Shown here: in pieces, positions 18,358 to 43,983 of the stretch | Numbering within the stretch: position 1 is the stretch's first letter | Layout of the letters: the number at the start of each line of letters is the position of its first letter | Assembly: GCA_900541685.1 (NCBI GenBank) | Contig: UQKM01000003.1 | Location: 69,576 to 133,575, forward strand | Reading direction: 5' to 3' | DNA: 64,000 nucleotides | Source: an uncultured Collinsella sp. | GTDB taxonomy: Bacteria; Actinomycetota; Coriobacteriia; Coriobacteriales; Coriobacteriaceae | Notes under the pieces: model-generated | The model's input: the letters and a program-made list of their open reading frames with translations, nothing else | Told to the model about the DNA's origin: nothing | Database searches by the model: none | Position numbers and translations under genes: made by a program

Positions 18358-18359
18358 AA

Positions 18360-18392
18360 CCACCACAAAGGGGACAGGCACCTTTGTGGTGG
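18360..18392 (+). repeat. hairpin repeat B1 (CCACCACAAAGGGGACAGGCACCTTTGTGGTGG)
   Basis: 12-bp perfect stem with loop GGACAGGCA; 2 nt after the mini-ORF stop. Confidence 0.9.
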
Positions 18393-18426
18393 TTCTGGCC
18401 GATGCAGTGGCATGCCTTGCTGCTTT

Positions 18427-18565
18427 GTCTCGATCTGTAACATCTGCAGCCGTTTTTGCCGAGTAACTGTTACAGATTGAGACAAAGGTTTGGGACTAAG
18501 ACGTCTTATCTCGATCTGTAACAGTTAGACGGGAATTCGGGCCCTAGATGTTACAGATTGAGATA
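18427..18565 (+). repeat. two tandem ~58-nt inverted-repeat units (16-17-bp arms TCTCGATCTGTAACA ... TGTTACAGATTGAGA, about 25-nt spacers), 80-nt periodicity
   Basis: Read directly: unit 1 at 18427-18483 and unit 2 at 18507-18565. Both carry the same single arm mismatch. Confidence 0.75.
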
Positions 18566-18586
18566 ATCGCGTCGCGAAAATAAAAA

Positions 18587-18621
18587 CCTCCGCAGGGGTG
18601 CTTCCCTTGCGGAGGTTTTTT
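18587..18621. terminator. bidirectional intrinsic terminator (dxs on minus strand; small plus-strand transcript)
   Basis: AAAAACCTCCGCAGGGG-tgcttc-CCTTGCGGAGGTTTTTT; the T-run overlaps the dxs stop codon. Confidence 0.8.
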
Positions 18622-20401
18622 ACTCGTTCAGTAGCCTTACGGCTTCGGCGGCCATGTTCTCGACCGTCATGCCGTTCCGCGCAAGCAGTTCGTTGGGGTC
18701 GTAGCGGTCGGGGAAGCCCTTGGCGATGCCAAAGGTGCGCGTGCGCAGCGGCGTGCAGGCCAGATAACATGCCACGCGCTCGCCCCAGCCACCGTCCAAG
18801 ATGCCGTCCTCGAGGGTGACGACAACGCGATGCTCGGCGGCAAGGCTGTCGAGGAACTCACGGTCAAGCTCGGTTGCAAAGCGCGGGTTGACGAGCGTGG
18901 CCTCGATGCCGTACTCGGCGGCTAGGCGGTTTGCCACGCGTTCGCCCAGCTCAAAGAAATCGCCGAGCGCGAGCACGGCCACGTCGCGGCCCTGGCGCAC
19001 CACGTTGTAGTGCGCGAAACCGTAATCGGCGTCCTCGGCGGGCGCCAGATCGGGGCGGCTTACCAAGCCAATGCCCGGCACGCGAATCGCCACGGGATGC
19101 TCGCGGTGGTCGAGCGACCAGCTCAGCATGGACAGATATTCCTCCATGCAGGAAGGCGCCAGGTAGCGCATGTTGGGAAGAGCGCCCAGCATGGAAATAT
19201 CGAAGAACGAGAGGTGCGTCTCGGATGTGGTGCCAAAGATTGATGCGCCAAACACCAGGATCGTCGCCGGGGCATCGTTGAGACACAGGTCGTGCCACAG
19301 CTCGTCGTAGGCACGCTGCAAAAACGTGCCGTACACACCAAAGACTGGCTTGGCGCCCGAGCGCGCAAGCGCGGTGGCAAAGGTCACGGCGTGCTCCTCG
19401 GCAATGCCCACATCGACGAACTGTTTGCCGGCGGCAGCCCGAAGCTCGGGTGTAAAGCCCATGATGTAGGGCGTGGCGGCCGTGATGCCCACAACCTGCG
19501 GATCGCGCTCGATGGCGGCGCTGAGCGCCTCGCCCGTAATGTCGGCATAGGTGCGCGGCGCAGGCTCGCTCGGATGGCCCGGGCAGAGCTTGCGCCCAGT
19601 CGCCATGTCAAACGGACCCACGTGGTGCCAGCGCTCGGGGTCGCTCTGGGCTGGCTCAAAGCCCTTGCCCTTGGCGGTGGAGACGTGCAGTACGATGGGA
19701 TGATCGATATCGCGCAGTTCCTGCAGCGCGTCGACCAAGGCCAACACATCGTTACCGGCGTCCAGATAGCGGTAGTCGAGCCCCATCGCGCGGAAAACGT
19801 TGCGCTCACAGGCGCCGTTGCTGGCGCGCAGCTCGGCCAGATTGCGATACAGGCCGCCATGGTTCTCGGCAATGGACTGGTCGTTATCGTTGACGATGAT
19901 GATCAGGTTGCTGTCGAGATCGGCGGCATTGTTAAAGCCCTCAAACGCCAGACCGCCCGAAAGCGAGCCGTCGCCAATAACAGTAATGACGTTATACGTG
20001 TCACCCGCCAGGTCGCGCGCGTGGGCAAGGCCGCAGCCCAAGCTCACCGAGGTCGAGGTGTGACCCATGGCGAACAGGTCGTGCTCGGACTCGTCAGGAT
20101 TGGCAAAGCCAGAAGCCTCACCATAACGCTCCGGATCGATATAGGTGTACGCGCGCCCGGTCAGCGCTTTGTGTGCGTAGGTCTGGTGCGACACGTCAAA
20201 GACAATTTTGTCGGTGGGGGAGTTAAACACGCGGTGGAGCGCGACCGTGAGCTCAACGACGCCCAGGTTGGGGGCAACGTGCCCGCCGACGGTGGCGGAG
20301 CTTTCGAGGATGGCGTGGCGAATCTCGTCGCAGAGCTGCGGGAGCTCGGCGCGATTAAGAGCCTTGACGTCCTCGGGCGTTGTCGTTTGCGTAAGCAGCA
20401 T
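18620..20401 (-). CDS. dxs: 1-deoxy-D-xylulose-5-phosphate synthase
   Basis: TPP-binding GDG...N motif, transketolase-like pyrimidine domain. Full-length 593 aa. Confidence 0.95.
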   Translation of the reverse strand: MLLTQTTTPEDVKALNRAELPQLCDEIRHAILESSATVGGHVAPNLGVVELTVALHRVFNSPTDKIVFDVSHQTYAHKALTGRAYTYIDPERYGEASGFANPDESEHDLFAMGHTSTSVSLGCGLAHARDLAGDTYNVITVIGDGSLSGGLAFEGFNNAADLDSNLIIIVNDNDQSIAENHGGLYRNLAELRASNGACERNVFRAMGLDYRYLDAGNDVLALVDALQELRDIDHPIVLHVSTAKGKGFEPAQSDPERWHHVGPFDMATGRKLCPGHPSEPAPRTYADITGEALSAAIERDPQVVGITAATPYIMGFTPELRAAAGKQFVDVGIAEEHAVTFATALARSGAKPVFGVYGTFLQRAYDELWHDLCLNDAPATILVFGASIFGTTSETHLSFFDISMLGALPNMRYLAPSCMEEYLSMLSWSLDHREHPVAIRVPGIGLVSRPDLAPAEDADYGFAHYNVVRQGRDVAVLALGDFFELGERVANRLAAEYGIEATLVNPRFATELDREFLDSLAAEHRVVVTLEDGILDGGWGERVACYLACTPLRTRTFGIAKGFPDRYDPNELLARNGMTVENMAAEAVRLLNE

Positions 20402-20629
20402 CGTTGTGGGTTACTCCATGCGAATCGTGCGCCGGCACTCCCTCGGCCGGCACAATTGCACAAGACAGTCTCGCACATTTTGGCGTTTGATATGTGACGG
20501 CGGCGCGGTAATTCGCCAACTGGTGGGGCAAAACGTTTTGTCCGATGCCATACTGATGTGTTCCATGATGTTTTTATCGATTGTGCACAGGCCGTAGCTT
20601 GTCGCCGTGAGTCGCTGGAAGGAGACAGC

Positions 20630-21187
20630 ATGTCTGATGTCGTTCGTGCCGAGAAAATCGCGCGCGAAGTAGACCATGCTGCCCGTCAACTGGCACAGGC
20701 GGGCCGCTTGGGCCTGACGCGCGAGTTTATCCAGCATGGTGACGTGACGGTGTATGCGCATGTGACCTCGGTCGCGCGGGCAAGCCTGTCCTTTGCCGAG
20801 CGTCTTGACCGTGTTGGTATTTCGGTCGACCGCGCCTCGCTGCTGCGCGGAGCCCTGCTGCACGACTATTTTCTCTACGATTGGCACGATCCTGATCCGA
20901 GCCATCGACTGCACGGATTTCGGCATCCATTTTTTGCCCTGGCGCGTGCCGAGGAAGATTTTGAGCTGACGTCGCGCGAACGGAACATTATCGTGCGGCA
21001 TATGTTTCCGCTGGTGCCGGTGCCGCCGACGTGTCGTGAGGCATGGATTGTGTGCCTGGCGGATAAATGGTGCGCTCTGCGCGAGACGATCGCCGGCCGT
21101 CTGCCGCGCAAAGGCGGCGCGAACGATTTGAACGAGGGCACGAGTGACGGTTCGAGCAAAGATTCGAGCGAGAAGAGGAGAGGGTAG
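20630..21187 (+). CDS. HD-domain phosphohydrolase
   Basis: H...HD...H...D metal-binding pattern (AHVTSVA / LLHDYF / HGFRH). Start at the ATG after GGAAGGAGA. Confidence 0.7.
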   Translation: MSDVVRAEKIAREVDHAARQLAQAGRLGLTREFIQHGDVTVYAHVTSVARASLSFAERLDRVGISVDRASLLRGALLHDYFLYDWHDPDPSHRLHGFRHPFFALARAEEDFELTSRERNIIVRHMFPLVPVPPTCREAWIVCLADKWCALRETIAGRLPRKGGANDLNEGTSDGSSKDSSEKRRG

Positions 21188-21190
21188 ACG

Positions 21191-22210
21191 GTGGAAACCG
21201 CGATCGACATGGCATTTGACGGCGCGACGCTTGCCGCCTGTCCGCTTTCGGCGCTGGTGCTCTCGTTTGCCTTCTACGGTTTTTGCGGCTGGGTGTGGGA
21301 GTCGACAGTCTGCGCCATGCTCAACTACGGACGATTTGCCAACAGTGGCTTTTTGCTGGGGCCGTGTTGTCCTATCTATGGTGCGGGCGGTATAGCCTGC
21401 TGGCTGTTGCTGCGTGGGATTCCGGATGCCTCGAGCCAGTTTGTCGCTGCAGCGCTCGTATGCAGCGTGATTGAATACAGTGTTGGTGTGCTGTTGGAAA
21501 AAACAACGGGCGCTCGCTTTTGGGACTATTCGCATCTGCCGTTTAACCTGCACGGGCGCATCTGTCTGTACTGGGCCTGCGCGTTTGGCTTGGGTGCGCT
21601 GTGCATTTGCCGTTTAGTGGAGCCGGCATTGCTGGGGTTGCTTGGCCATCTGCCGGCGCTGATTGTGCGGCTGTCCGCCTTTATCGTCGCGGTCGCGATG
21701 ATGGTCGACGCGGTGTGCTCTTTGGCCAGCTGGCGTCGCCTGTCCGATCAGCTGGAGCGTGTGCGCGCCGACCTTGCCGACCGCATCAACGAGTCGCTTG
21801 CCGATGCCTCGGATTCAATGCTCGAACGCATTCCCGAATCGACGATTGACTCGGTGGCACAGACGCACATCCGCAGCCGTGCCGTTAACGCGTGGCTGGC
21901 CGAGCTGGGTGACGCCGCGCTCGATGCCTTGCGCGATAAGGCTTCGATGCCGACGTTTATCGCGGATGGTGCTCGCGGCCTGGCGCTTGCCGCCCGCCGC
22001 GTGGCCGATGCCGCGCCGAGCATGCCGCGTCCGTCGCTCAGTCGTCGCCTTGCCGGCAAGCGCATGAGCCGTCCGGTGCCAAGCGTGTCGCTCAGCCGAC
22101 GCGACCTGCGCTTCTTCAATGCCTTCCCGCGCTTGCGCATCAACCGCTACGAGGGCGTCATCCGAGCCACCGACCTTCGCGACCGAGCTCGCGAGCTGTT
22201 CCGGCGCTAG
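21191..22210 (+). CDS. membrane protein of the PF06541-like (DUF1113, so-called ABC-transporter type IV) family with long C-terminal Ala/Arg-rich tail
   Basis: WESTVCA...GPCCPIYGAGG motif typical of that family. GTG start after AGGAGAGGG. Confidence 0.5.
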   Translation: METAIDMAFDGATLAACPLSALVLSFAFYGFCGWVWESTVCAMLNYGRFANSGFLLGPCCPIYGAGGIACWLLLRGIPDASSQFVAAALVCSVIEYSVGVLLEKTTGARFWDYSHLPFNLHGRICLYWACAFGLGALCICRLVEPALLGLLGHLPALIVRLSAFIVAVAMMVDAVCSLASWRRLSDQLERVRADLADRINESLADASDSMLERIPESTIDSVAQTHIRSRAVNAWLAELGDAALDALRDKASMPTFIADGARGLALAARRVADAAPSMPRPSLSRRLAGKRMSRPVPSVSLSRRDLRFFNAFPRLRINRYEGVIRATDLRDRARELFRR

Positions 22211-22408
22211 CTGGGACGGGCGCGCTCACGGCTTCCTTGCTCGCGTATTTCCCGTTCGTTTCGCGTCCGTTGCCGCGTCGTTTCCAAGATTGCGGCACCG
22301 TTTCCATTCGACAACGCAGCGTTTAACAACGCCGTATCTGGTCTACACCAGTTGTTCCTCGGCCGCATTATGGGCGCCGACAACGTCCATGCGACCAAGG
22401 GGGAGCGA

Positions 22409-23686
22409 ATGTACGATACGGGATCGACAACGTTTATGCTCATCTGCACTATGCTCGTGTTTTTAATGACACCGGGTCTGGCGTTTTTCTATGGCGGCCT
22501 GTCCAGGCGCAAAAATGTCATCAACACCATGCTCATGTGCTTTGGCGCCATTGGCCTGGTCGGTGTGCTGTGGATTGTTGCCGGCTGGTCGCTGGCCTAC
22601 GGCGGCGACGGCTCGAGTCCGTTTATTGGAGGCCTTGACCAGCTGCTGTGCCTGCCGGTGCTCAACCAGGTGCTGCAGGCGGCCGAGGGCAGTGCCGCGG
22701 ACGGCGCCGTCTACCCCCAGATCATCAACATCGCCTTCCAGATGGCGTTTGCCATGATCACGGCCGCTATCGTGACGGGCAGCCTAGCCGGTCGCGTTAA
22801 GTTTGGCGCCATGACGGCTTTCCTGGGTATTTGGCTGCTCGTGGTCTATGCGCCACTCGCCCACATGGTCTGGGGCGGCGATGGCTCTTTTATCGGCAAC
22901 ATCATCGGCGCGCTCGACTTTGCCGGCGGCGACGTGGTGCACATTTCGTCTGGTCTTACCGGCCTGATCCTCTGCTTAATGCTCGGTCGCCGTCGCGGTT
23001 TTGGCATGGTGAGCTATCGCCCGCATAACGTGCCGTTTGTGGCGCTGGGCGCCGGCCTGCTTTGGTTTGGCTGGTTTGGCTTTAACGGCGGCAGTGAGTT
23101 TAAGGCCGACGCCGTGGCGGCGCTTGCCATCCTTAACACCGTGACGGCCAGCGCGGCGGGTATGGTCTCGTGGCTTGTCGTCGAGCGCGTGCGCACCGGT
23201 CGCCCCACGCTGGTGGGCGCCAGCACCGGTCTGGTCGCGGGCCTCGTGGTGGTCACGCCGGGCGCGGGCTTTGTCGAGCCGTGGGCGGCGCTGGTCATGG
23301 GCCTAATCGTCTCGCCCGTCTGCTACTTGGCTATCAGTCATCTCAAGACCAAGTTTGGCTACGACGATGCGCTCGACGCGTTCGGTTGCCACGGTATCGG
23401 CGGTATCTTGGGCGGCGTGCTCACGGGCCTGTTCTGCGTGCCGGAGCTCTCGTGGACCGGCAAGGGCGGCCTGTTCTACACGGGCGACGTGTCACTGCTC
23501 ATCTCGCAGATTTTGGGCATTGTGGTGACGGTCGCTATTGTACTGGTGCTCGATTTGGTCATCGCCGCGGTAGTCAAGGCGCTGTTCCACGGCAGCCTGC
23601 GCGTGGACGAGGCCGACGAGGCGCTGGGCCTGGATGCGAGTCAACACGGCGAGAGCGCATACCCCTCCTTCTCGGGACTCGATTAG
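22409..23686 (+). CDS. amt: ammonium transporter
   Basis: Amt/MEP signature regions, 11 TM. Start at the ATG after AAGGGGGAG. Confidence 0.9.
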   Translation: MYDTGSTTFMLICTMLVFLMTPGLAFFYGGLSRRKNVINTMLMCFGAIGLVGVLWIVAGWSLAYGGDGSSPFIGGLDQLLCLPVLNQVLQAAEGSAADGAVYPQIINIAFQMAFAMITAAIVTGSLAGRVKFGAMTAFLGIWLLVVYAPLAHMVWGGDGSFIGNIIGALDFAGGDVVHISSGLTGLILCLMLGRRRGFGMVSYRPHNVPFVALGAGLLWFGWFGFNGGSEFKADAVAALAILNTVTASAAGMVSWLVVERVRTGRPTLVGASTGLVAGLVVVTPGAGFVEPWAALVMGLIVSPVCYLAISHLKTKFGYDDALDAFGCHGIGGILGGVLTGLFCVPELSWTGKGGLFYTGDVSLLISQILGIVVTVAIVLVLDLVIAAVVKALFHGSLRVDEADEALGLDASQHGESAYPSFSGLD

Positions 23687-23842
23687 CAGCACGGCTTTCT
23701 CAGGCACCCGACCTTGCCCCTCAAACCGTCGCATGCGTACCGAAGTACGCGGCGCTCCTCTTTCGGGACAATCTCGGGCACCTGGAAAACCCGTGCCATG
23801 TGAAGGTAAATCAATTTCTTTTATTGAAGAGAGGAATTCACT

Positions 23843-24181
23843 ATGAAGAAGATTACGGCGATTGTTCGTGCCGAGAAGCTTGAGGTTCTTAAAGACGCGC
23901 TGTTTGCTGCCAATGTTCGTGGTATGACTATCAATCAAGTGCAGGGCTGCGGCGCGCAGCATGGCTGGAAGGAATACGTGCGCGGCAACGAGCTGCTTGT
24001 CAACACGATCCCTAAGGTGCAGTTCACGCTCATTTGCGCTGATGAACATGTCGATGGCATTGTCGACATCATCTGTAACGCCGCACGCACCGGTGCCGTT
24101 GGAGATGGCAAGATTTGGGTCGAGCCGGTCGAAGAAGTCATCCGCATACGCACCGGCGAACACGGCCCCGCCGCGGTGTAG
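23843..24181 (+). CDS. glnK: P-II nitrogen regulatory protein
   Basis: 112 aa. T-loop region RGNELLVNT...KVQ (uridylylation-site region of the P-II family) and P-II C-terminal signature. Confidence 0.9.
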   Translation: MKKITAIVRAEKLEVLKDALFAANVRGMTINQVQGCGAQHGWKEYVRGNELLVNTIPKVQFTLICADEHVDGIVDIICNAARTGAVGDGKIWVEPVEEVIRIRTGEHGPAAV

Positions 24182-24255
24182 AATCGACCGCCTACCATCC
24201 GCAACGTTAAAATGCTGCAATGAGGCACAAGACTTGCGTTGCGGATGGGCGGATT

Positions 24256-24918
24256 ATGGGTCGCAATAAATATCCCGAGGAGACGGTCGCGAAGATTCTC
24301 GACGCGGCACTGGAGCTATTCTGCGCACAGGGTTATGAGGGGACGAGCATTCAAGATATCGTTGACCGTCTCGATGGCATGACCAAGGGCGCTGTCTATC
24401 ATCACTTCAAGAGCAAAGAAGAGATTTTTAACGCCGCTTTTGATCGGGCGATGACTCCGATTGTTGAGCACCGCCGCTCGATGCTTGGCGTCGGTAATAT
24501 GACCGGAGCCCAAAAGCTCAAGCGACTGTACGCGCCCGAGTCCGTAGTTCCGCAAATTGAGCTATGGGCACGTATGCGTCCTGCAGCAGATCCGGTAAAA
24601 AGCTCGCGTCTTCTGGCGATGCAGTACCAGGGTTCGTTTGGCGAGTCTACCGATGGCTGTCTCTTGCCAGTGATCGAGGAGGGCATCGCCGACGGCTCCA
24701 TTGCGTGCGAATGCCCGCGCGAAGCGGCTGAGGCCGTATCGTTGTTGGCGAATCTTTGGCTGCTGCCGCTGTTCCGTCCGCTTGAGACCAAGGATCGAAT
24801 GCTCTCTCGCGCTCAATGTTTGGCGCAGATGGCTGCCGCGGTGGGACTCGATTTGGGCGAGGAAGTGCTCCAGACAACGGCTCGGATTTGGGACGTATGG
24901 AACAGTGCCGGGTGGTAA
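24256..24918 (+). CDS. TetR/AcrR family transcriptional regulator
   Basis: N-terminal HTH (TSIQDIVDRLDGMTKGAVYHHFKSKEE). Start is uncertain. Confidence 0.8.
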   Translation: MGRNKYPEETVAKILDAALELFCAQGYEGTSIQDIVDRLDGMTKGAVYHHFKSKEEIFNAAFDRAMTPIVEHRRSMLGVGNMTGAQKLKRLYAPESVVPQIELWARMRPAADPVKSSRLLAMQYQGSFGESTDGCLLPVIEEGIADGSIACECPREAAEAVSLLANLWLLPLFRPLETKDRMLSRAQCLAQMAAAVGLDLGEEVLQTTARIWDVWNSAGW

Positions 24919-24920
24919 TA

Positions 24921-25004
24921 TAGATACTGACGGTATGTAATTGATTTGAGAGGGCAGCTTCGGTTGCCCTTTTCAAGTCAATAATTACATACTAACGGTA
25001 TGTA
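24921..25004. promoter_or_regulatory. two near-identical 19-nt palindromes (TAGATAC-TGACG-GTATGTA; TACATAC-TAACG-GTATGTA) flanking a UUCG-loop terminator; candidate TetR operators for the MFS gene
   Basis: Read directly. The second palindrome lies 15-33 nt upstream of the MFS ATG. The intervening hairpin GGGCAGC-TTCG-GTTGCCC is followed by TTTTC. Confidence 0.5.
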
Positions 25005-25018
25005 TAGGGGGCGGACTT

Positions 25019-26281: not shown

Positions 26282-26342
26282 CGCGCTGGGGCACCGTGAA
26301 TTTGCGGAGGCAGTGGCCCGCCGCGCCGGGACGGCATTGTTT

Positions 26343-26396
26343 GGGCATGCCTCTCCTTCGTCTACAATATCGTGCAGACGAAGGAGAGGCATGCCC
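26343..26396 (+). promoter_or_regulatory. 21-bp perfect inverted repeat (GGGCATGCCTCTCCTTCGTCT / AGACGAAGGAGAGGCATGCCC) with 12-nt loop ACAATATCGTGC; it encloses the SD and first ATG of the HAD gene
   Basis: Read directly. The SD AAGGAGAGG lies within the right arm and the gene ATG at 26397 abuts the stem. The loop contains a TACAAT -10-like hexamer. Confidence 0.7.
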
Positions 26397-27254
26397 ATGA
26401 TCAAGATGTTCGCAAGTGACCTAGACGGAACGCTGCTTAACGCCCTGCATGAGGCGGATGGGACCATCCGCCGTGCCATTCGCGAGCTGACTGAGGTTGG
26501 CCTGCACGTGGTTCCCGCGACCGGACGCTCGACGCTGCCGATCGGCGAACATGGCTTTACGGGGCTGGCGCTTGACGCCTGCTGCTCTAACGGCTCCATC
26601 GTGCGCGACAGCCATGGAGAGGTGCTCAAGACCTGGACTATCGATCCGCAGATTACCGAGGAGCTGCTCAAGGAGTTTCCGGACATTTGCTTTGATTGCT
26701 CCACGCCCGATGGCATGTTCTCGAGCGGCTCGTTCGAGATGCACCAGGCGGGCTTTAAAAGGGACAGTCCTATCAAGCGCATCGTGATGCGCGGTATGCG
26801 TGCGCGTGGCGGGTACCACGAGGAACAGTATTTCGATCAGTCGATCGGCGATATCTTGCGTCACGATGTATGCAAGATCAATTGTCGCGTGATCTCGCCC
26901 GAGTTGGAGCGCGACCTTAAGGCGTATCTTGCCGAGCGTTCGGACCGCGTGGTCAACGCGCCGTTCGATCCGGTGATGTTCGAGATCACGGACGTGGCAT
27001 GCAACAAGGGCGAGAGTGTGGCCTGGCTGGCGGGCTACTACGGCATTGCCGAGGACGAGGTTGCGGTTTATGGCGACGGCGGAAACGACATCGCCATGCT
27101 CAAGCGTTTCCGCCACAGCTACGCGACCAAAAACGCTAGCGATGCAGCTAAAGCCGCCGCGAGCGCAACTATCGGCAGCTGCATGGTCCACGCCGTTCCC
27201 AAACACATGCTCGCCACCATGCGCAAGCAGAACTCTCACACTGTCATCGAATAA
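26397..27254 (+). CDS. Cof-type HAD-IIB family hydrolase
   Basis: DLDGTLL motif I and C-terminal GDGGNDIAML motif. Confidence 0.8.
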   Translation: MIKMFASDLDGTLLNALHEADGTIRRAIRELTEVGLHVVPATGRSTLPIGEHGFTGLALDACCSNGSIVRDSHGEVLKTWTIDPQITEELLKEFPDICFDCSTPDGMFSSGSFEMHQAGFKRDSPIKRIVMRGMRARGGYHEEQYFDQSIGDILRHDVCKINCRVISPELERDLKAYLAERSDRVVNAPFDPVMFEITDVACNKGESVAWLAGYYGIAEDEVAVYGDGGNDIAMLKRFRHSYATKNASDAAKAAASATIGSCMVHAVPKHMLATMRKQNSHTVIE

Positions 27255-27283
27255 TGTGACAAAGGGACTGTCCCTTTGTCACA
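27255..27283 (+). repeat. palindromic variant D (TGTGACAAAGGGAC-T-GTCCCTTTGTCACA)
   Basis: Shares the AAAGGGAC core; starts 0 nt after the HAD hydrolase stop. Confidence 0.75.
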
Positions 27284-27410
27284 CTGAGCCATGATCCCTT
27301 GGAGTACGAACACATATTCGTATATATGAGCAAGCTCTGTTAGAATCGGTATCGTTGGCGGCAGTTCCATGTGCCGGGCAGCGCCCTCCATTTGATGGGA
27401 GGTGATGCCC

Positions 27411-35539: not shown

Positions 35540-36680
35540 TTACTGCACATCAAACTCCACGCGATCGAGCTCGGGCACATTGAGGTCGATGAGCTTGCGG
35601 GCTACACGGCGGTCGTGTGCCCCAAGCGCCTCGCTTGTCGTCACATGGGCGACAACCTCGCGCTCGACAAGGCCCTCCTCCTCGTCTTCGGTGGCCGAGG
35701 TCTCGACGGCAACGGTGTAATCCTTAAAGCCCGGCAGCACCGCGGCAAGCTCGCGCGTGGTTTCGGTGACGCCGTAACCGTCCTGCACGCCGGCCTGCGC
35801 CGAGCCAATAGACCCCGCCGTCATAACGATGCAGGGGATGGCAAAGATCACCGTGCCCACGATGATGCGGCGGCGCACCTTGTGTGACAGCTCATCGACC
35901 TCGGCGTTTTCCTCGGCGGTCACAATGCCGTCGCCGTTGAGGTCGCGCTTGAGCGGCACGCGCAAAAGAAGCAGCACGGCTTCGGCAGCCAGTGCGATAA
36001 AGACCACGTTGATGCCAAACTCGTAGAGGGCCGAGAGAAACAGCGACCCGCTCGCGATGGCGATGCCATAGCCCGCCGCGCACAGGGGCGGCATGAGCGC
36101 GGTCGCCACGGCCACGCCGGCGATGAGCGTGGCGGGTTCCTGGTCGCGCGAGTTGCCCAGGCCACCCGCAAAGCCGCCTGCGAGTGCGACGGCAAGGTCC
36201 CACACAGTCGGTGTCGAATTGTCGATGATGGCGGCCGTGGTGGTGCCAAGGGGCGAGAGCTTAAAATACAACGTGGACGTGACCAGGCAAAAGGCCATCT
36301 GTAGAGCCAAGCTCGCGATGGCCTCGACGGTAATCTCGCGGTCGAGCGTGGCGATGCCGTATGCCATGGCAAGGACCGAGCCCATGAGCGGGCAGATGAG
36401 CATGGCGCCTACAATGGCGATATCCGAGTCGATATCGAGGCCGATGCTCGCAATCAACATGGCAATGATCAGGATGCATAAGTGCGAGCCAGTCAGGCGC
36501 GCCCCGTTTACAAAGCGCTTGCGAATCACGTGATAGGGCGCGCGTCCCTCGCGAATGTTGAATGCCTGCTTTAGAAAGCGGCTTGCGTCCTTCATGGCCT
36601 CGCTGTGTGCGGGGCGTATACCGTGACGACGATGATGACGCTCGCGCAGCCGCTTGATCTGTTGTTTATCGAGTTCCATG
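35540..36680 (-). CDS. DUF389-family integral membrane protein
   Basis: Conserved N-terminal block RFVNGARLTGSHL...IIAMLIASIGL...AIVGAMLICPLMG. Start re-called to the ATG 5 nt after GAGG. Confidence 0.7.
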
Positions 36681-36895
36681 TTCACCTCGTATTGCCGCAG
36701 GAACGCGGATGTGTTCGCAGCATGTACTCTACACCGTGGCGCCCGTGGCGGTCATCTTGACATGGAACTTAGGCGAGCAGGCAAAGGAAGACACGCCACA
36801 TACGAGTACTGCCGAGGGTTTCGGCAGATACAGAAAGAGCGCGGGGCCGGATGGTCTCCGACCCCGCGCTCTGTACGGGTACGTTGTTGTTGGGT

Positions 36896-38599
36896 TTATC
36901 CCAGCAGGCTCAGGCCAACAGAGACAAACGCCAGGATAACGCCGACGATAGACTCGCCACCGAGCAGGCCGCTGGCGACAACCAGGCCCTGCTCCTGGAA
37001 GGCGGCGTCCTTGGCGGCCTTCTCCTCGTCCGAAAGACCGGCGGCGGCGTCGCGGTGAGCGGCCCACTTGTCGTAGGCGAGCTTAACGCAGGAGCCCAGG
37101 AAGGCCGTGAGCGACATGTAGAACGGCAGGTACACGCCCAGACCGATCATCATGGCCGGAATGCCGAGCCAGTACATGACGATGCCGGCGATAAAGCCGC
37201 CTGCGAACCACGGCACGCTCGGGATGCCCGAGACCATGGTGGCGACGACGCTTGCCTGCGCGGCCACAAAGCTCTTGTCGGGGCCGAAAGCATCCGGACC
37301 ATAGGCGGTGACGAGCGCGACCATGACGGCGGCGGCGACCAGGGCGCCCACGATGCCGCCGATGGCCTGGCCGACCCACTGTGCGCGCGGGTTGGTGCCC
37401 AGCACGGCGCCGGCCTTAAAGTCGTTCATGACGTCGCCTGCAAGGCCGCATGCCACGGCCACGATGCCGGCGATAAAGAACAGCTTGACCTGTGCGAGCT
37501 GCGCGAAGGCCGCCACGATGAGCATGACGATGAGGCCGAAGATCTCCATGGGGTCGATGCCCGTCTGGCCGCAGCTCTGCGCGCTCATGATGGTGGTGAC
37601 AAAGGTGAACAGCGTGACGATGACGGCCGGAACGGGACCAAGGTCGAGCGCGATAGCGACGATCACGGCGATGACGGCGGTGCCCAGGCCGATGATGCCG
37701 GCGTCGAGCTTAAGGGAGCCCGAGATGAGCGACTGCTCGTCGGTGTCGGTGGAGCTGTCGGCGGCGAGGCCACGGACGATGCCGGCGACCTGCGGCAGGA
37801 TGTCCTTGAGGACGACGGCGACGCCAAAGCCCATCATGAGGCCCATGCCGAGCGATTTGACGATGCCCTGCGCAGTCACAACGTCGAATAGACCGGCAGC
37901 GGTGCCGCCCACGATGATGCCAAAGTTGCCCAGCAGCGCGCCGGCAAACCAGCAGGCCACGGGGGCGAAGCCCACCAAAAAGCCAATGGACAGCAACATG
38001 GGCGAGTTGTAGATGGCAAAGGTCACGCCGGGGATATTGAGCGTGCACAGCATGCTGGGCACCACGCCCAGGGCGTCGCGAAGCACGCTGTAGATGCCTG
38101 CGATGGCCATGGAGCCAAAGAGCTGCTTGCCGGTCTTGCCGCCGGCCTCGGTGGCGCGCAGGGTCTGAGCTGCGGCGTTGCCGGTGGGGAACTCCAGCGC
38201 GGCGTCCACGATAAAGTGGCGGTGGATGAGCGCCGTTGCCAGAAGGCCCAAGATGGTGCCGGCGAGCGCCACGATAAACATGTCGAGCCAGCTGATCTGG
38301 TCGGCATAGCCCAGCATCCAGGCGCCCGGGATGGTAAACGCCAGGCCGCCGGCGACCATAGCGCCCGCGGACATGATGGTGTGGGTGACGTTGGCCTCGT
38401 TGAGGCTGGCGTTGCCCATGAGTTTCAGGAAGAACAGCGAAATGACGGCGGCGAAGATGATCGGCCAGGGGAGCGCGCCCATCTTGAGGGCCGTGTAGGC
38501 CGAGCTTGCCGTGATGATTACGCAACCGAGAACGCCGATGACGACGCCGCGCAGCGTGAGTTGACCGCGCATCGAGGCGCGGTTCGAGGGATTGCTCAT
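36896..38599 (-). CDS. OPT-family oligopeptide transporter
   Basis: About 16-TM OPT-superfamily architecture. SD AAGGAG. Intrinsic terminator at about 36836-36880 on the minus strand. Confidence 0.8.
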   Translation of the reverse strand: MSNPSNRASMRGQLTLRGVVIGVLGCVIITASSAYTALKMGALPWPIIFAAVISLFFLKLMGNASLNEANVTHTIMSAGAMVAGGLAFTIPGAWMLGYADQISWLDMFIVALAGTILGLLATALIHRHFIVDAALEFPTGNAAAQTLRATEAGGKTGKQLFGSMAIAGIYSVLRDALGVVPSMLCTLNIPGVTFAIYNSPMLLSIGFLVGFAPVACWFAGALLGNFGIIVGGTAAGLFDVVTAQGIVKSLGMGLMMGFGVAVVLKDILPQVAGIVRGLAADSSTDTDEQSLISGSLKLDAGIIGLGTAVIAVIVAIALDLGPVPAVIVTLFTFVTTIMSAQSCGQTGIDPMEIFGLIVMLIVAAFAQLAQVKLFFIAGIVAVACGLAGDVMNDFKAGAVLGTNPRAQWVGQAIGGIVGALVAAAVMVALVTAYGPDAFGPDKSFVAAQASVVATMVSGIPSVPWFAGGFIAGIVMYWLGIPAMMIGLGVYLPFYMSLTAFLGSCVKLAYDKWAAHRDAAAGLSDEEKAAKDAAFQEQGLVVASGLLGGESIVGVILAFVSVGLSLLG

Positions 38600-38791
38600 A
38601 TAGAACTCCTTTGCGTATATCCGCTTCCCCCGGGAGCGCCGCTACGGATGCGGCGCGGGAAGTCGGGTTACCAAGGGCCGCCGCGTGAGCTCGCAAACGA
38701 CCGCGCACCAGTATAGCCGCAAGTTAGTCATTTTGGGATGACTGGTTTAGGTAGGCGATATACTGCTGGGCAGACGAAAGGAGCGCCGACG

Positions 38792-39643
38792 ATGCTTAAT
38801 GGGTGCGCATATATATTGACGGTCGACGTGGGCAACACGTTCATTCGCTTTGGCCTGTTTGCCGAGGATTCGGCCGCGGCACAGGAATGCCCGCTTGCGA
38901 CGTGCGAGATCACGACGCCGTCGAGCATCACGGCCGACGAGGCGCGCATGCGACTTGTGCAGGTCATGGGCGCGCTCGCCGCCGATGCGGGTGTGCCCGG
39001 GGTGCTCGTACCCGCGGCTGCTGTGCTGAGCTGCGTGGTCCCGGCGCTCGAGCGTCCGTGGAAGGCGGCGCTTTCCCGTACCTGCACGGGGCGCGTGCTC
39101 ACTGTGGGGCCGGGACTTAAGACCGGCATGCCCGTGCACTACGACGATCCTGCCGAGATCGGTCCCGACCGCATCGCCGATGCCGTGGCGGCCCGCGCCG
39201 TCTACGGCTCGCCGTGCATCGTGATCGACCTGGGCACGACGACCAATATCGAGGTGATCGACGCGCACGGCACCTTTGTCGGCGGCGTTATCGCGCCGGG
39301 GCTGGCGCTCGGCGCCCGTTCGCTCTCGGCCGCTGCGGCGCGCCTGCCTCAGGTCGAGCCTTCGGCGCCAACGCACGTCATCGGCCGCAACACGCGCGAG
39401 GCCATGCGCTCGGGCGTGGTCTTGGGCGAGGTGGCCCGCATCGACGGCATGCTCGACATGGTGCTTGCCGAGATGCGCGCGACCAAGGCCGCGGGGGAGG
39501 GTGATGTGCCCATCGTCATTACCGGCGACGATGCCGAGGCACTTGCGGCGCTGGTCGGCCATAGCCTGACGGTCGATGACGCGCTGACGCTGCGGGGCCT
39601 CGCCGAGCTCTACCGCATCAACCAAAAGCCCCGTCGCGCGTAG
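38792..39643 (+). CDS. coaX: type III pantothenate kinase
   Basis: LTVDVGNT N-terminal motif and PanK-III fold. ATG 9 nt after AAAGGAG. Confidence 0.85.
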   Translation: MLNGCAYILTVDVGNTFIRFGLFAEDSAAAQECPLATCEITTPSSITADEARMRLVQVMGALAADAGVPGVLVPAAAVLSCVVPALERPWKAALSRTCTGRVLTVGPGLKTGMPVHYDDPAEIGPDRIADAVAARAVYGSPCIVIDLGTTTNIEVIDAHGTFVGGVIAPGLALGARSLSAAAARLPQVEPSAPTHVIGRNTREAMRSGVVLGEVARIDGMLDMVLAEMRATKAAGEGDVPIVITGDDAEALAALVGHSLTVDDALTLRGLAELYRINQKPRRA

Positions 39644-39725
39644 CGATGGTGCGGTGGGACAAAAACGTCTCCACCTTTCACCTGCTACAATGGGTCAAAC
39701 TATTGCGATTTCGGAGGTGTCTGCC

Positions 39726-40250
39726 ATGTCGGACGATCTTCATCAAACCGCGTCGGGCAAGCGCCGCGACGTCATTAGCTGGGATGAGTTCTTTATGAGC
39801 GTGGCCATCGCCGCTCAGCGCCGCAGCAAGGACCCCAACACGCAGGTGGGCGCGTGCATCGCCAACACCAACCACCGCATCCTTTCGGTGGGCTACAACG
39901 GTACGCCCTCGGCGCTCAACGACGACTTTTTCCCGTGGGGCACGAGCGACGACCCGCTGCAGGACAAGCACAACTACGTGGTCCATGCCGAGGCCAACGC
40001 CGTGCTCAACTATCGCGGCTCGCTCAAAGACCTTGAGGGTTCCACAGTCTACGTCACGCTGTTTCCGTGCCACGACTGCGCCAAGATCCTGGCGCAGGTA
40101 GGCGTGGGCGAGGTCGTCTACCTGGACAACAAGTATGCCGATACCGACGACGGCCGTATCAGCCGCCGCATTCTCGACTCCTGCGGCATCAGCTACCGCC
40201 AGGTTATCGTCGATGTCCAGATTGGTACCGGGGGGCAGGCTCGGCAGTAG
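39726..40250 (+). CDS. dCMP deaminase (ComEB-like)
   Basis: Zinc-binding HAEANA and PCHDCAK motifs. Confidence 0.85.
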   Translation: MSDDLHQTASGKRRDVISWDEFFMSVAIAAQRRSKDPNTQVGACIANTNHRILSVGYNGTPSALNDDFFPWGTSDDPLQDKHNYVVHAEANAVLNYRGSLKDLEGSTVYVTLFPCHDCAKILAQVGVGEVVYLDNKYADTDDGRISRRILDSCGISYRQVIVDVQIGTGGQARQ

Positions 40251-40420
40251 CGCGTGCCAACGCCAGCTGGCGGCAAAACAGCCAAAAGAGCCCCGTCCCA
40301 AATTGACTGCTCGTGAAAGTCGTGTCCGCACGCATGGCTGGCGCCTAAGCGGGTACATGGCTGTAGTAACATAGCCCCTGTCCGCGGGCGTGCCCGCGTT
40401 ATTGTGAGAAAGGAGCCCCT

Positions 40421-40699
40421 GTGGCTGTTAACGAAGAGCTGCTTAAGAAGGTTCTTGAAGAGATTCGCCCCAACCTGCAGGCCGACGGCGGCGATATGGA
40501 GTATGTGGGCGTCGACGACGAGGGCGTCGTCAAGCTGGAGCTGCAGGGCGCCTGCGCCGGCTGCCCCATGAGCTCGCTGACCCTTTCCATGGGTATCGAG
40601 CGCATCCTGAAGGAGCACGTGCCCGGCGTTACCCGCGTTGAGCAGGTCAATGCTTCCGGCGAGGCCGAGGACCTGTACGACGAGTACGCGCCGTTCTAA
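40421..40699 (+). CDS. NifU-like (Nfu-type) Fe-S cluster assembly domain protein
   Basis: CAGC motif in an Nfu C-terminal-type fold. GTG start 6 nt after AAAGGAG. Confidence 0.75.
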   Translation: MAVNEELLKKVLEEIRPNLQADGGDMEYVGVDDEGVVKLELQGACAGCPMSSLTLSMGIERILKEHVPGVTRVEQVNASGEAEDLYDEYAPF

Positions 40700-40808
40700 G
40701 ATGCGAAAGCTGCGGACGGTACGCTTCGCATAGACGTTACGCCCAAATATGCGGCTGCGAGCGTAAGGCCCGCGGCCGCATTTGTATGTAGGGAGCAGGG
40801 GGATCGAT

Positions 40809-41630
40809 ATGCTCAACGACCTCTACCATATGCTTGATCCCGTCGCGATCTCGGCGGGCCCCATCACCATCTACTGGTACGGCCTGGCCTACGTGGTCGG
40901 TGCTCTGCTCACGGCGGTTGTTATGTACCGCACGCAGCGTCGTTGGGGCTTCGACATTACGATTGATGACCTGACGAGCGTCGTGGTCGGCGCGGTCTTT
41001 GGCCTCATCATCGGCGCGCGCCTGTTTTACGTCGTCTTTTACGGCGATGGCTACTATTGGACCCACCCGTTCGAAATCTTTGCCACCAACGAGGGCGGCA
41101 TGAGCTTCCACGGCGGCCTGGTGGGCGGCATCTTGGGCGGCATCATCGTGTGCCGCATGTACAAGCTCGACGCCTGGACCATCGCCGACCTTGCTGTGAT
41201 CGGTGCTCCGCTGGCGCTGTGCCTGGGACGCTGCGCCAACTTCGTCAACGGTGAGCTGTGGGGTAAGCCGACCGATCTGCCCTGGGGTGTGGTCTTTGGC
41301 GGCACCGCGGGCGATATGCCGCGCCATCCCTCCCAGCTCTACGAGGCGTTTCTAGAGGGCATTGTGCTCTTTTGCATCCTGCAGGTGCTCAGTCGCAAAA
41401 AACCGCTGCTGCCCCAGGGTACGTTTATGGGCGTCTTTGTGATGGGCTACGGCATCGTTCGCTTTTTGATTGAGTTTGTGCGCGTGCCCGATGAGCAGCT
41501 GGGCTATCTGCTGGGCGGCGTCATCACCATGGGTCAGCTGCTGAGCCTGCCGCTCGTAATCGCGGGCCTGGCGCTCATCATCTTCGCCCGACACCGCAAT
41601 CGCCCCCAGCGCATCTACCTCGACGTCTAA
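40809..41630 (+). CDS. lgt: prolipoprotein diacylglyceryl transferase
   Basis: Lgt signature (FHGGLVGGILGG...; GRCANFVNGELWG). Confidence 0.9.
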   Translation: MLNDLYHMLDPVAISAGPITIYWYGLAYVVGALLTAVVMYRTQRRWGFDITIDDLTSVVVGAVFGLIIGARLFYVVFYGDGYYWTHPFEIFATNEGGMSFHGGLVGGILGGIIVCRMYKLDAWTIADLAVIGAPLALCLGRCANFVNGELWGKPTDLPWGVVFGGTAGDMPRHPSQLYEAFLEGIVLFCILQVLSRKKPLLPQGTFMGVFVMGYGIVRFLIEFVRVPDEQLGYLLGGVITMGQLLSLPLVIAGLALIIFARHRNRPQRIYLDV

Positions 41631-41663
41631 CCACCACAAAGGGGACAGGCACCTTTGTGGTGG
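41631..41663 (+). repeat. hairpin repeat B2
   Basis: Identical to B1; starts 0 nt after the lgt stop and lies 46 nt from A4. Confidence 0.9.
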
Positions 41664-41709
41664 TCTGCTGGGCAACGACGACAGAACCGTAACGTTTTCC
41701 CAGATAAAA

Positions 41710-41742
41710 CCTGCCAAAATAAACCTGTCCCTTTTTGGCAGG
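41710..41742 (-). repeat. hairpin repeat A4 (reverse orientation)
   Basis: CCTGCCAAAATAAACCTGTCCCTTTTTGGCAGG, preceded by CCCAGATAAAA (the reverse complement of the conserved flank). Confidence 0.9.
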
Positions 41743-41766
41743 TTTCTAGAAAGGCTCTTTGGACTG

Positions 41767-43949
41767 TGAAGGATTCCGACCTCTCCACAACGGCTGCGCG
41801 CGACGCTGCCCGCATCGTCTGGTTTAAGCGCTACCCCGCCAAGCAGACGCTCATCGCATTTCTGCTCGCGCTGTTGGCGACCACGGCGTTTTCCATCGAT
41901 CCCGCGCCGGTCTCGAGCAACGCAGTCTTGGCGATTGACCCCAAAGCCTCGGGCATGCTGTACGTGTGCTACGAGGTGCTCCTCTCGTTTGCCGGCCATA
42001 CCGACGCGGTCATGCTGCTTGCGCTTGCCTGCCTGCTCACTCTGCCGTTTCGCTACGTATTCTTTGGCCGCGGCGATGCTTGGCGTCCTTCGGTGATCCT
42101 TCCGTCGCTGTTCTTTGCCGTCTGCATGGTGTTTGGCCGCAGCTACGACCTCACCGATTCTGCCGAGATCGTACTCGGCGACAAGGCTCGCATCATCTGC
42201 GCCTGGATAGGCGGTGCGGGCTGGATGCTCTTGGCGGTCGTTGCCTTCTACCTGGCTTTTGAGTGTCTAGATTGGCTGAGCTCTCGGCGCATTCCGTTTT
42301 CCGAAGCGCACTTTGGCCGCGTATGGCGTGTGGCTCACGCCGTACTCTCGGTCCATCCCTTTGCCGGGCCCTTCCTGGTGCTTATGGTCGCCTGGGCGCC
42401 CATGCTCATCGCTTCGCTGCCCGGCCTTTTTATGGGAGATACGGGTGCGCAGATTCGCCAGTGGTTCAACTACCCCAACGGCACGAGTGACTACCTGCGT
42501 CTGCTCAATCCCAATGTGTTGCTCAACGGACATCACCCCGTGGTGCACACGGCTATCATCGGTTCGTGCGTCCAGCTGGGGCTTTCACTGTTCAACAGTG
42601 CCAACGCAGGTCTTGCCATCTACACCTGCGCTCAGTTCGTCATTACGGCCGCCTGCATGGCCTATTCCATCTCGTCGCTGCGCAAGCTGGGCGTGAGCTT
42701 GCCGATCCGCGGCGTGATCTTGCTGTTCTTTGTGTTTATGCCCATGTTCTCCAACTACGCGGCCCTGCTTACCAAAGATGTGCTGTTTGCCGACGCGTTT
42801 TTGGTGCTGTTGGTGCAGACCGTGAAGCTCGTGGCCTGCGGCCTGCCCCGTCGCGATGCCAATGCCGAGCGTGCGGGCGAACAGAGGCCCGTACTCTTTG
42901 CGCGCCATGACTGGCTGCTGCTCGCTCTGGGTGCCATGGGTTCCACGTTTCTGCGCAACGGCGGCCTGGTGTTTCCCCTGGCGGCATGCGTAATCGCGGC
43001 GGCGTTTTGCGCATGGGACGCGCATGTGGCTCGTCGTGCAGTCAAGCAGGCCGGTGCTGCGCCTTCGGGCGCCATCTCACGTTTCCGCTGGGTGGGAGTT
43101 CTTGCGGTGCTTGGACTCTGCCTTGCCTCTAATATGTACTTCACCAAGGTCTTTATGCCGGCGCACGACATTACGCCTGGTTCCAAGCGCGAAATCCTCT
43201 CGATTCCGTTCCAGCAGACGGCTCGTTTCGTCCAAAAGCACGACGGCCTCAACTCGGGTGTCAACCCTACGGTTAAGGAGGACGGTACTATCGTGGAGGC
43301 TCCTTGCGACGGCTTGGTGACCGACGAAGAGCGTGCCGTGATCGACCGTGTGCTCAAGTACGACAATCTGGGCCGCCGCTACAACCCGGATAAGTCGGAC
43401 GCCGTCAAAAATTGCTTTAACGAGTACGCCTCGCAGGAGGACATCAAGGCCTATTTTGAGGTCTGGGCGCAGATGTTCAAAAAGGATCCCGAGTGCTACA
43501 TCTCGGCGCTCATCAATAACTACTACGGCTACTTTTATCCGAGTGCCCGCGATGCGTGGGTCTACAGCACGGCGCGCAGTGCCGAGATTATGGCGAAGCC
43601 CGATAACCTCAAGTACTTTGACTTCCATCCGGTCGATAGCAAGGTTGTGCGCTGGTGCGACCACCTGATCAACCTGTATCGCGTGGCGGTGCAGCGCATT
43701 CCGTTTATCTCGCTCACCATGAGCTCGGCCACCTATGTGTGGATTATGATCGCCGTGGTGGTCTATCTGCTACGTCGTCATTCATGGCGCGGTCTGGCCA
43801 TTTGGTTGCCGCTGCTGGGCGTGCTTGCCGTGTGCCTGATCGGTCCCTGCAACGGTTCGACCTATATGCGCTACCTGTATCCGGTTATCGCCTGCATGCC
43901 CTTTGCCATCGGCGCCACCATCACTCGCAGCGACCTCCTCTGGTCCTAA
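41767..43949 (+). CDS. large polytopic membrane protein (about 730 aa; possible YfhO/DUF6020-like glycosyltransferase-type membrane protein). Start uncertain
   Basis: Many TM helices N-terminally plus a C-terminal soluble region. The annotated ORF start at 41655 is a translation of repeat elements B2 and A4, so the real start lies downstream (GTG 41767 or later). Confidence 0.55.
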
Positions 43950-43950
43950 T

Positions 43951-43983
43951 TTGGTGCAAAGGGGACAGGTTACTTTGCACCAA
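43951..43983 (+). repeat. hairpin repeat C (TTGGTGCAAAGGGGACAGGTTACTTTGCACCAA)
   Basis: Same loop motif with a third stem sequence; starts 1 nt after the large membrane protein stop. Confidence 0.85.

Follow-up and report, generated by a model that had tools for sequence, protein, structure and literature searches.

TIRYTs, also called TIRtrons, are RAYT-like genes flanked by inverted repeats that share the motif GGGGWSAS, and some of their repeats constitute dispersed families arranged like repetitive extragenic palindromes (REPs) (Di Nocera et al. 2013, PMC3733652). Most of these elements were assigned to subclass 2.1 of the TnpAY1 transposases, which corresponds to RAYT group 1. This subclass was reported in 14.9% of strains, across taxa, with a flank consensus GGGG[AT][CG]A[CG], a HuH motif NH[YF]H, a Y motif YIxLNP, a C-terminal domain similar to a helix-turn-helix and 'no REP' near the gene (Quentin et al. 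2018, PMC6006769). No actinobacterial or Collinsella examples were found in these two reports. In E. coli, TnpAREP binds and cuts REP hairpins only when they are single-stranded and requires their GTAG tag (PMC3333891), and REPs act there as context-dependent terminators and decay barriers within 3' untranslated regions (3' UTRs) (bioRxiv 10.64898/2026.03.23.713779). The present analysis concerns a stretch of 64,000 nucleotides from an uncultured Collinsella sp. (contig UQKM01000003.1 of assembly GCA_900541685.1; hereafter the window), which has a G+C content of 59.6% and carries a series of hairpins with the word GGGACAGG in the loop. These Collinsella hairpins are probably non-autonomous palindromic repeats of the REP or TIR (terminal inverted repeat) type, which a TIRYT-type transposase would recognise as hairpins of single-stranded DNA and which would have secondary effects in 3' UTRs.

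Eight exact occurrences of GGGACAGG were found in the 64 kb, all of them within the loops of strong hairpins that fall into families A (five copies), B (two) and C (one). Two further hairpins complete the set: D, a symmetrised variant, and E, a tenth hairpin overlooked by the initial annotation, whose five A copies and B, C and D sequences were all present at the positions it had given. The family A words lie at 358, 1596, 18171 and 46585 on the plus strand and at 41731 on the minus strand, the B sequence CCACCACAAAGGGGACAGGCACCTTTGTGGTGG occurs exactly twice (18360 and 41631) and the D sequence GTGACAAAGGGACTGTCCCTTTGTCAC lies at 27255. With at most one mismatch, AAAGGGGACAGG matched nine times in the window, against 0.13 expected from shuffles; the ninth match (21237-21248, minus strand) is situated within a called gene and has no hairpin. 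An unbiased list of the perfect hairpins of the window with stems of at least 9 bp comprised 19 entries, among them D and five of the eight motif hairpins, three A copies being missing because of a stem mismatch; the remaining entries were GC-rich and had unrelated loops. A covariance model (R1) built from diverse copies, the kind of search proposed by the initial annotation, returned from the window exactly the eight motif hairpins (E-values from 5e-11 to 1e-5) and D (E-value about 0.01). It gave no further sense-strand match in the window at E<1, the sub-threshold matches being reverse-strand images of the same hairpins. Folded as RNA from either strand, the window hairpins were predicted to have energies between -16 and -24 kcal/mol (z-scores between -4.5 and -5.6).

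A fixed loop on stems that differ and still remain complementary had been noted from the window, and the same picture emerged from 37 diverse copies of Collinsella and other phyla: the lower-stem covariation score was 0.367 as opposed to 0.146 in shuffles, none of which reached it in 500 trials, and slid registers did not exceed 0.18. Compensatory variants exist even within family B (CCACCGC/GCGGTGG and CCCCCAC/GTGGGGG). The further claim that B and C have unrelated stems holds for the outer 6-7 bp, to which the difference is confined, but not for the inner stem CAAAG/CTTTG, which both have in common.

The repeat nature of these units was apparent from a scan of AAAGGGGACAGGNNNNTTT against 185,579 species genomes, which matched at least 120 loci; among the matches listed, about 75 were from Collinsella and 42 from other phyla. 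Again among the matches listed, many Collinsella genomes carried the 41-nt B unit AAAACCACCACAAAGGGGACAGGCACCTTTGTGGTGGTTTT, which occupied dozens of distinct loci, and the A and C units were likewise recurrent in Collinsella loci. Further Collinsella families have related loops (GGGACGGGG, GGGACAGAC, GGGACATGCC and GGGGTCAGG, the latter also given for the loop type of hairpin E). The families have in common an apical module made of an A run, GGGACAGG, three to four variable bases and a T run. Family A additionally displays a conserved 3' tail of about 18 nt, TTTTATCTGGGCAAACGTC, so that its unit is longer than its hairpin, and its copies are often squeezed in between a TAA stop codon and a distinct canonical terminator. 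The loop type of E is found as an allele at the C locus of other strains, and symmetrised copies resembling D occur in other genomes (L074:6145 and L105:5467). Most simply, A, B, C and E can be understood as TIRYT-type REP-like repeats, and D as a symmetrised derivative.

A census of about 0.6 Mb of other Collinsella genomes together with the window gave 134 hairpins. None was located in a called gene, and 87 lay in tandem, 28 in convergent and five in divergent gene contexts. As extragenic imperfect palindromes of 20-40 nt in high copy number, they agree with the description of REPs, and as a dispersed family with dimers and clusters they agree with that of TIR repeats. Dimers were found at L081:4819/4909, at L096:3976/4018 and at 310-382 of the window, where E adjoins A1 in inverted orientation in the manner of a REP heterodimer. 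Close associations of A with B were also seen in the window, where, as the initial annotation had pointed out, the two families co-occur twice within 200 nt (18159/18356 and 41630/41707). Across Collinsella species, B follows an identical gene end (...GCTCTCTAA) in L054, L057, L076, L083 and L099 on the one hand and L062 and L081 on the other, with unrelated right flanks; some hairpins therefore stand at synteny breakpoints.

The 134 copies also show a strand bias relative to genes. Among tandem-context copies, 56 were sense and 31 antisense; sense copies lay at a median of about 6 nt past the stop codon (68 of 91 within 18 nt), and the distances of antisense copies to stop codons were more scattered. 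Where gene strand and GC skew were in conflict, hairpin orientation followed the gene in 15 cases against 5, and a replication-strand bias was discarded on this basis, with the reservation that skew over 8-kb pieces is noisy. Read in the direction of transcription, about 55-60% of the copies had at least four T residues among the next 8 nt, whichever way the loop faced. Such features would be expected of an RNA element selected by the host, that is, an mRNA 3'-UTR hairpin with a G-rich apex (GGG paired with YNN under an ACAGG pentaloop cap) that is bound by a protein or aids termination or 3'-end protection, its loop being conserved through RNA function. Several structural details point the same way. 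In 34 of the 37 diverse copies the G preceding ACAGG (G18) faces a C or U at column 24, three bases past the core, with which it can pair; this pairing would produce an ACAGG pentaloop. The G:T pairs of G18 are possible on the motif strand alone, and single stem mismatches read on that strand lean weakly towards G:T (26) over A:C (17). Roles in 3' UTRs are, moreover, documented for E. coli REPs.

Other observations are difficult to reconcile with such an element. Antisense copies represent 36% of those in tandem contexts, and their RNA would show CCUGUCCC instead of the motif. In the window, Rfam gave the flavin mononucleotide (FMN) riboswitch alone above gathering threshold, and no family, Collinsella-1 included, overlapped the hairpins at E<=10. 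A scan of 41000-47000 with a simple intrinsic-terminator definition (GC-rich stem, loop of 3-8 nt, at least five T in 8 nt) flagged none of B2, A4, C and A5, and A5 and other A copies precede a separate canonical terminator. An RNA function also does not explain why the same 8-mer is a DNA repeat upstream of transposase-gene promoters (see below), nor why loops at orthologous sites vary within a species. We therefore consider a host-selected RNA element unlikely as the primary identity of these hairpins; the roles of 3'-end stabiliser or terminator helper proposed by the initial annotation are plausible as a side effect.

The within-species variation was assessed on the same 20 kb in ten related strains and the window (11 sequences). 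A4, with about 61 nt, was present in five and absent from six, and the 'empty' allele retains a degenerate fragment of the 3' arm. The B2 loop was altered in four of the 11 (GGGGGCAGG, GGGGACAGA or an AC insertion), and B2 of other strains has a partly duplicated 5' arm, one stem change being non-compensated. The C locus displayed two loop alleles, AAAGGGGACAGG and ATTGGGGTCAGG, as well as arm duplications, and A5 had a 2-nt loop deletion in one strain. Diversity in hairpin columns amounted to 0.23 for C and 0.041 for A5, as compared with 0.029 and 0.009, respectively, in flanking intergenic DNA, making the hairpins 4-8 times more variable than their flanks. This does not fit well with the earlier proposal of selection for a folded structure, if applied to each locus. 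Together with the presence or absence of A4, the variability is better accommodated by selfish repeats than by constraint on each locus: the consensus looks to be kept at the level of the repeat family, through amplification, and not by site-wise purifying selection.

Outside Collinsella, the same apex was found among the matches listed in 57 instances at 42 loci of more than 15 phyla, including Aminicenantes, Nitrospirota, Geobacter relatives, Clostridia, Elusimicrobia, Myxococcota, Acidobacteriota, Planctomycetota and others. The cross-phylum consensus, AAAAGGGGACAGGCTACTTTT, is recurrent at gene 3' ends; its four unconstrained bases are CTAC in 28 of the 57 instances, and it is preceded by A in 51 and followed by T in 42. 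Pairing extended past the fixed bases by a mean of 2.0, compared with 1.07 in permutations (maximum 1.42). The consensus often occurs, between convergent housekeeping genes, as an inverted pair whose copies form a perfect stem over about 20 bp, and otherwise as a single copy 0-30 nt past a long open reading frame (ORF). At Nitrospira loci the word terminates longer repeats, and one Nitrospiraceae locus (L114, 1822-1925 and 3340-3445) carries elements of about 110 nt in which two inverted copies of the word stand about 70 nt apart, an architecture similar to that of REPINs. All-against-all BLAST of the ORFs near the cross-phylum word initially revealed no recurrent family, BLAST searches of plasmids and phages with the paired word gave nothing meaningful, no adjacency of the word to tRNAs was seen, and Rfam assigned only spurious miRNA models to the cross-phylum pairs. 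The 13 matches of an IMG/VR scan had no A/T context and were taken as chance.

The inverted pairs of other phyla resemble bidirectional terminators, and together with the location at gene 3' ends and the flanking A and T runs they recall ordinary intrinsic terminators related by chance duplication or gene conversion, in which the loop would be a passive hitch-hiker without any dedicated mobilising enzyme. However, identical 41-nt units occur at dozens of unrelated loci, and since no flanking homology exists among the B-unit loci, gene conversion offers no easy route to this distribution. Loops of 11-13 nt are atypical of terminators, and the simple terminator scan misses these hairpins. A passive loop can explain neither the identity of a 13-20-nt word across phyla nor its adjacency to Y1 transposase genes, and this origin appears improbable to us.

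This adjacency provides the link with TIRYTs. RayT-like ORFs abut the word at L125 and L093 (NCBIfam REP_Tyr_transpos, E=4e-12 and 2.7e-18, respectively) and, as a tblastn fragment, at L075. The word-abutting Nitrospira ORFs have the tyrosine (Y) motif that is catalytic in REP-associated tyrosine transposases; L093, whose ORF is full-length, has an HUH motif (NHFHLL) as well. At E<=1e-10, 7,757 homologues of the L093 protein were counted; the 120 listed among them all contain PF01797, and their sources name several of them 'REP element-mobilizing transposase RayT'. A sequence (A/T)GGGGACAGG(Y)AAAT is found 100-200 nt upstream of the gene in five cases out of five, namely in the Flexistipes, Desulfacinum, Aminicenantes and Acidobacteriota homologues and in L093. 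A set of 80 metagenomic RayT-like loci was obtained by protein profile, and upstream and downstream regions were counted over 71 and 62 of them, respectively. Exact GGGACAGG on the gene strand occurred within 150 nt upstream (at 45-145 nt) in 26 of the 71, where about 0.4 were expected (background of 0.04 per kb-strand), and an inverted copy lay 100-350 nt downstream in eight of the 62. Some of these loci carry arrays of the word. The word also stands beside a Y1 transposase gene in L093, L125 and L145-L152; RayT-like loci in viral contigs (IMG/VR) numbered only three. The loop words of B and C (GGGGACAG), and those of E and of the alternative C allele (GGGGTCAG), conform to GGGGWSAS. Judged by this match with the flank motif of Y1/HUH transposases, a single-stranded DNA hairpin read by a protein is the better-fitting of the options proposed in the initial annotation.

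Two loci with particular arrangements may be mentioned here. In a Nitrospira sequence (L125, 1-730), a RayT-like C-terminal fragment and the adjoining GTAGCCTGTCCCC word are tandemly duplicated in two units of about 480 nt, which looks, from its organisation, like a decaying or rearranged TIRtron. In a metagenomic locus (L153, 300-2900 and 4330-4370), eight CGTAAAAGGGGACAGGCAAACTATGCTTGA copies, mostly in the same orientation, surround one RayT-like gene; each is followed by a -35-like TTGA, which suggests that the word is promoter-adjacent or autoregulatory.

Linear words located just upstream of a -35-like TTGA beside TIRYT-like genes, where they could be autoregulatory, and tandem direct copies in L093, L122 and L153 are the observations that would suit a duplex-DNA site, either an operator or a nucleoid-protein site, with GGGACAGG as half-site. 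In Collinsella, however, the word is always in the loop of a palindrome with covarying stems. It is itself non-palindromic, and divergent (promoter) regions are nearly free of copies (5 of 134, with 0 of 134 inside genes). The initial annotation had already doubted a duplex operator, and we regard such a site as highly improbable.

Recognition of REP-like hairpins by a TIRYT-type transposase explains at once the fixed loop with variable stems, the existence of several families, their instability among strains and the identity of the word across phyla. Mechanistically, the palindrome would fold when the DNA is single-stranded, for instance at a replication fork. Folding would expose GGGACAGG unpaired in the loop, where a transposase could read it, cut the strand and rejoin it. 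Nothing would be required beyond the loop sequence and arms that can pair, GGGACAGG being the part kept for copying, and this requirement would explain why stems differ between families and yet stay complementary. Copies would survive only at sites of low harm, right after stop codons. Once transcribed, they may act secondarily as 3'-end hairpins, in the form of partial terminators or exonuclease barriers, as E. coli REPs do. Such a scheme supposes that a TIRYT-type enzyme is, or formerly was, present in Collinsella and binds the loop, with effects at the RNA level.

Several points weigh against this interpretation. The loop word of family A, AGGGACAG, deviates from GGGGWSAS at the first base. 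No RayT- or TIRYT-like gene was found by tblastn and profile search in the window and about 0.9 Mb of Collinsella DNA, a small sample in which a single-copy gene could be missed. In other phyla, the words close to transposase genes form no stable hairpins, so that presentation in a hairpin loop could be peculiar to Collinsella and have nothing to do with recognition by the enzyme. Classical REPs carry a GTAG tag, which does not occur in the Collinsella copies. To our knowledge, no biochemistry exists for subclass 2.1 enzymes. Lastly, an orientation that tracks gene direction (56:31 and 15:5) and the tendency of sense copies to hug stop codons hint at a constraint at the level of RNA or translation that a pure model of DNA parasites does not predict. 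Transposase recognition alone thus leaves the sense bias and the proximity to stop codons unexplained; they may reflect tolerated insertion sites or an added RNA role.

Other candidates were considered and set aside. KOPS (FtsK-orienting polar sequences) and Chi sites do not apply, as all copies occupy hairpin loops and coding DNA contains none, and uptake sequences are species-specific and occur in coding DNA too. The R''/R' boxes of integron attC sites (RYYYAAC ... GTTRRRY) were not found in A, B, C and D, whose neighbours are syntenic housekeeping genes. Likeness to CsrA or Shine-Dalgarno-type binding sites amounted to a mere 7-nt resemblance, at sites located at 3' ends. The A run/T run flanks continue the palindrome and are not direct repeats, which eliminates the target site duplications of DDE-type miniature inverted-repeat transposable elements (MITEs). 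The described intrastrand-triplex repeats (PMC4666352) are unrelated. Comparison with E. coli 16S, 23S and 5S rRNA gave no convincing mimicry or complementarity, and searching the literature for GGGACAGG, GGACAGGCTAC or the reverse complement of either yielded nothing but primers and unrelated matches.

Within the window, genes were delimited with a codon-bias caller and checked against database calls and Pfam, and the positions of the ten hairpins are collected in Table 1. The statement that five of nine hairpins directly follow stop codons holds for four genes and one putative mini-ORF: B2 begins 0 nt past the lgt stop (lgt, 40809-41630), C 0-1 nt past the stop of a DUF6020 membrane protein (41766-43949) and D 0 nt past that of a HAD hydrolase (26391-27254), while A5 overlaps or abuts the stop of asp23 (46049-46573) and is followed by a canonical GC-rich hairpin with a T run at about 46625-46665. 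The Asp23 protein of the window is unchanged in GCA_902485705.1, in GCA_028209515.1 and in ENA assemblies, one of which is labelled human gut metagenome. The fifth hairpin, B1, starts 2 nt past the putative mini-ORF, of 13 codons, and lies on the strand opposite to dxs, 223 nt downstream of the stop of that gene. A4 is antisense and ends 20 nt upstream of the DUF6020 start. The motif of A2, A3 and B1 is on the plus strand between minus-strand genes and is consequently antisense to their transcripts.

Table 1. Coordinates of the motif-loop hairpins and related hairpins in the 64-kb Collinsella window (E-values are those of the covariance model)
Hairpin	Coordinates	Strand	Sequence or context	E-value
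E	310..348	-	arms GGTTTGGCGCAA / TTGCGCCATACC, loop TGGGGTCAGGTTGGC	
A1	344..382	+	AAACCTACCAAAA-AGGGACAGGTTTA-TTTTGGCAGGTTT, then family tail TATCTGGGCAAA	6.9e-8
A2	1583..1619	+	between minus-strand M24 peptidase (1694-2581) and 2-hydroxyacid dehydrogenase (629-1564)	2.3e-8
A3	18159..18193	+	tail TTTATCTGGGCAAACGTCA; antisense to minus-strand neighbours	1.2e-6
B1	18356..18396	+	AAAACCACCACAAAG-GGGACAGGCAC-CTTTGTGGTGGTTCT; RNA fold -24.1 kcal/mol, z -5.4	5e-11
D	27253..27285		near-perfect palindrome TGTGACAAAGGGAC-T-GTCCCTTTGTCACA	about 0.01, both strands
B2	41630..41664	+	33-nt core same as that of B1	2.9e-10
A4	41707..41745	-	hairpin and tail; sole minus-strand A copy	1e-8
C	43950..43984	+	TTTGGTGCAAAG-GGGACAGGTTA-CTTTGCACCAAA; C sequence at 43951	1.8e-7
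A5	46572..46608	+	tail TTATCTGCGTAAACGTC	1.3e-5

Some additional features of the window and its relatives were recorded. The mini-ORF preceding B1 (18319-18357, plus strand; MNGYSFFAPTMI) has a strong AAGGAG ribosome-binding site and lies between A3 and B1 in the spacer of two minus-strand genes; it could be a small gene, a leader or a chance occurrence. At the dxs stop, positions 18582-18620 (AAAAACCTCCGC ... GCGGAGGTTTTT) form a canonical hairpin of the bidirectional terminator type, which shows that terminators of the ordinary kind are present alongside the GGGACAGG hairpins. A perfect 21-bp inverted repeat at 26342-26397 (TGGGCATGCCTCTCCTTCGTC ... GACGAAGGAGAGGCATGCCCA) spans the predicted start of the HAD hydrolase gene, and as its 3' arm contains a Shine-Dalgarno-like GGAGAGG, it may constitute a translational control hairpin. 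The FMN riboswitch (RF00050, 93.4 bits) occupies 59998-60190 on the plus strand, upstream of an ORF at 60175-60786. Codon-bias scores between about 7800 and 13700 were weak relative to the rest of the window, and this region may be recently acquired DNA. Near groES, transposase insertions of family IS256 (L004, 17320-18444) and family IS110 (L006, 20506-20525) were found in some strains of the same species only.

With respect to significance, hundreds of near-identical hairpins per Collinsella genome, situated 0-15 nt past stop codons and variable among strains, probably make mRNA 3' ends differ from strain to strain and probably give rise to breaks in assemblies and in synteny. Should the link with TIRYTs hold, REP-type repeats reach a dominant actinobacterium of the human gut, and an oligonucleotide hairpin with a GGGACAGG loop becomes a concrete substrate for the second-largest subclass of Y1/HUH transposases. 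If it fails, a 20-nt word shared across phyla at gene 3' ends deserves attention by itself. A more far-reaching proposal, which we put forward only tentatively, is that hairpins with a GGGACAGG loop are the true single-stranded DNA substrates (the 'REPs') of TnpAY1 subclass 2.1, or TIRYT, enzymes. These enzymes would read the loop instead of a GTAG tag at the stem foot, and the hairpins would have colonised post-stop sites in Collinsella and, as AAAAGGGGACAGGCTACTTTT words and pairs, many other phyla, doubling as 3'-end hairpins that tune expression.

Among known systems, ordinary intrinsic terminators resemble the Collinsella hairpins as stable hairpins just past a stop codon, often with a T run, and the pairs of other phyla have the appearance of their bidirectional forms. 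The conserved loop of 11-13 nt, the AT-rich upper stem, the T-rich tail in only about half of the copies and the repetition of the unit at many loci set the Collinsella hairpins apart. IS200/IS605 elements and REPINs likewise involve single-stranded DNA hairpins recognised by Y1 HUH enzymes without target duplication, and the inverted doublets of about 110 nt in Nitrospira (L114) recall REPINs. Unlike IS200/IS605 elements, the Collinsella element has no internal transposase, no defined left and right ends and no tetranucleotide target, and it consists mostly of single hairpins.

The likeness to E. coli REPs and bacterial interspersed mosaic elements (BIMEs) is more extensive: both are imperfect palindromes of 30-40 nt that are extragenic and numerous, lie in the 3' UTRs of tandem or convergent gene pairs, vary among strains and are arranged as singles or inverted dimers. 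The E. coli enzyme acts on single-stranded hairpins, and the repeats have side roles as terminators or decay barriers. The difference concerns the conserved part, which is the GTAG tag at the stem foot in REPs but the loop in Collinsella. Families A, B and C have no conserved GTAG (GTRG) or CTAC at either foot, and CTAC follows the core only in the cross-phylum word. TIRtrons and TIRYTs share with the Collinsella hairpins the GGGGWSAS core (GGGGACAG and GGGGTCAG in Collinsella), dispersed families with some dimers or clusters, and a patchy distribution across phyla; their motif flanks RayT-like Y1 genes in inverted orientation, as the word does in phyla other than that of Collinsella. For subclass 2.1, Quentin et al. 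gave no REP-like structures (PMC6006769), and no cognate gene was located in the Collinsella DNA searched. The Collinsella motif is placed in the loop of a 10-15-bp hairpin and not in a linear inverted repeat, and its copies hug stop codons. The Collinsella repeats thus differ from the known REP and TIR repeats in three respects: the recognition motif is in the hairpin loop, the host belongs to another lineage, and the copies are positioned right after stop codons.

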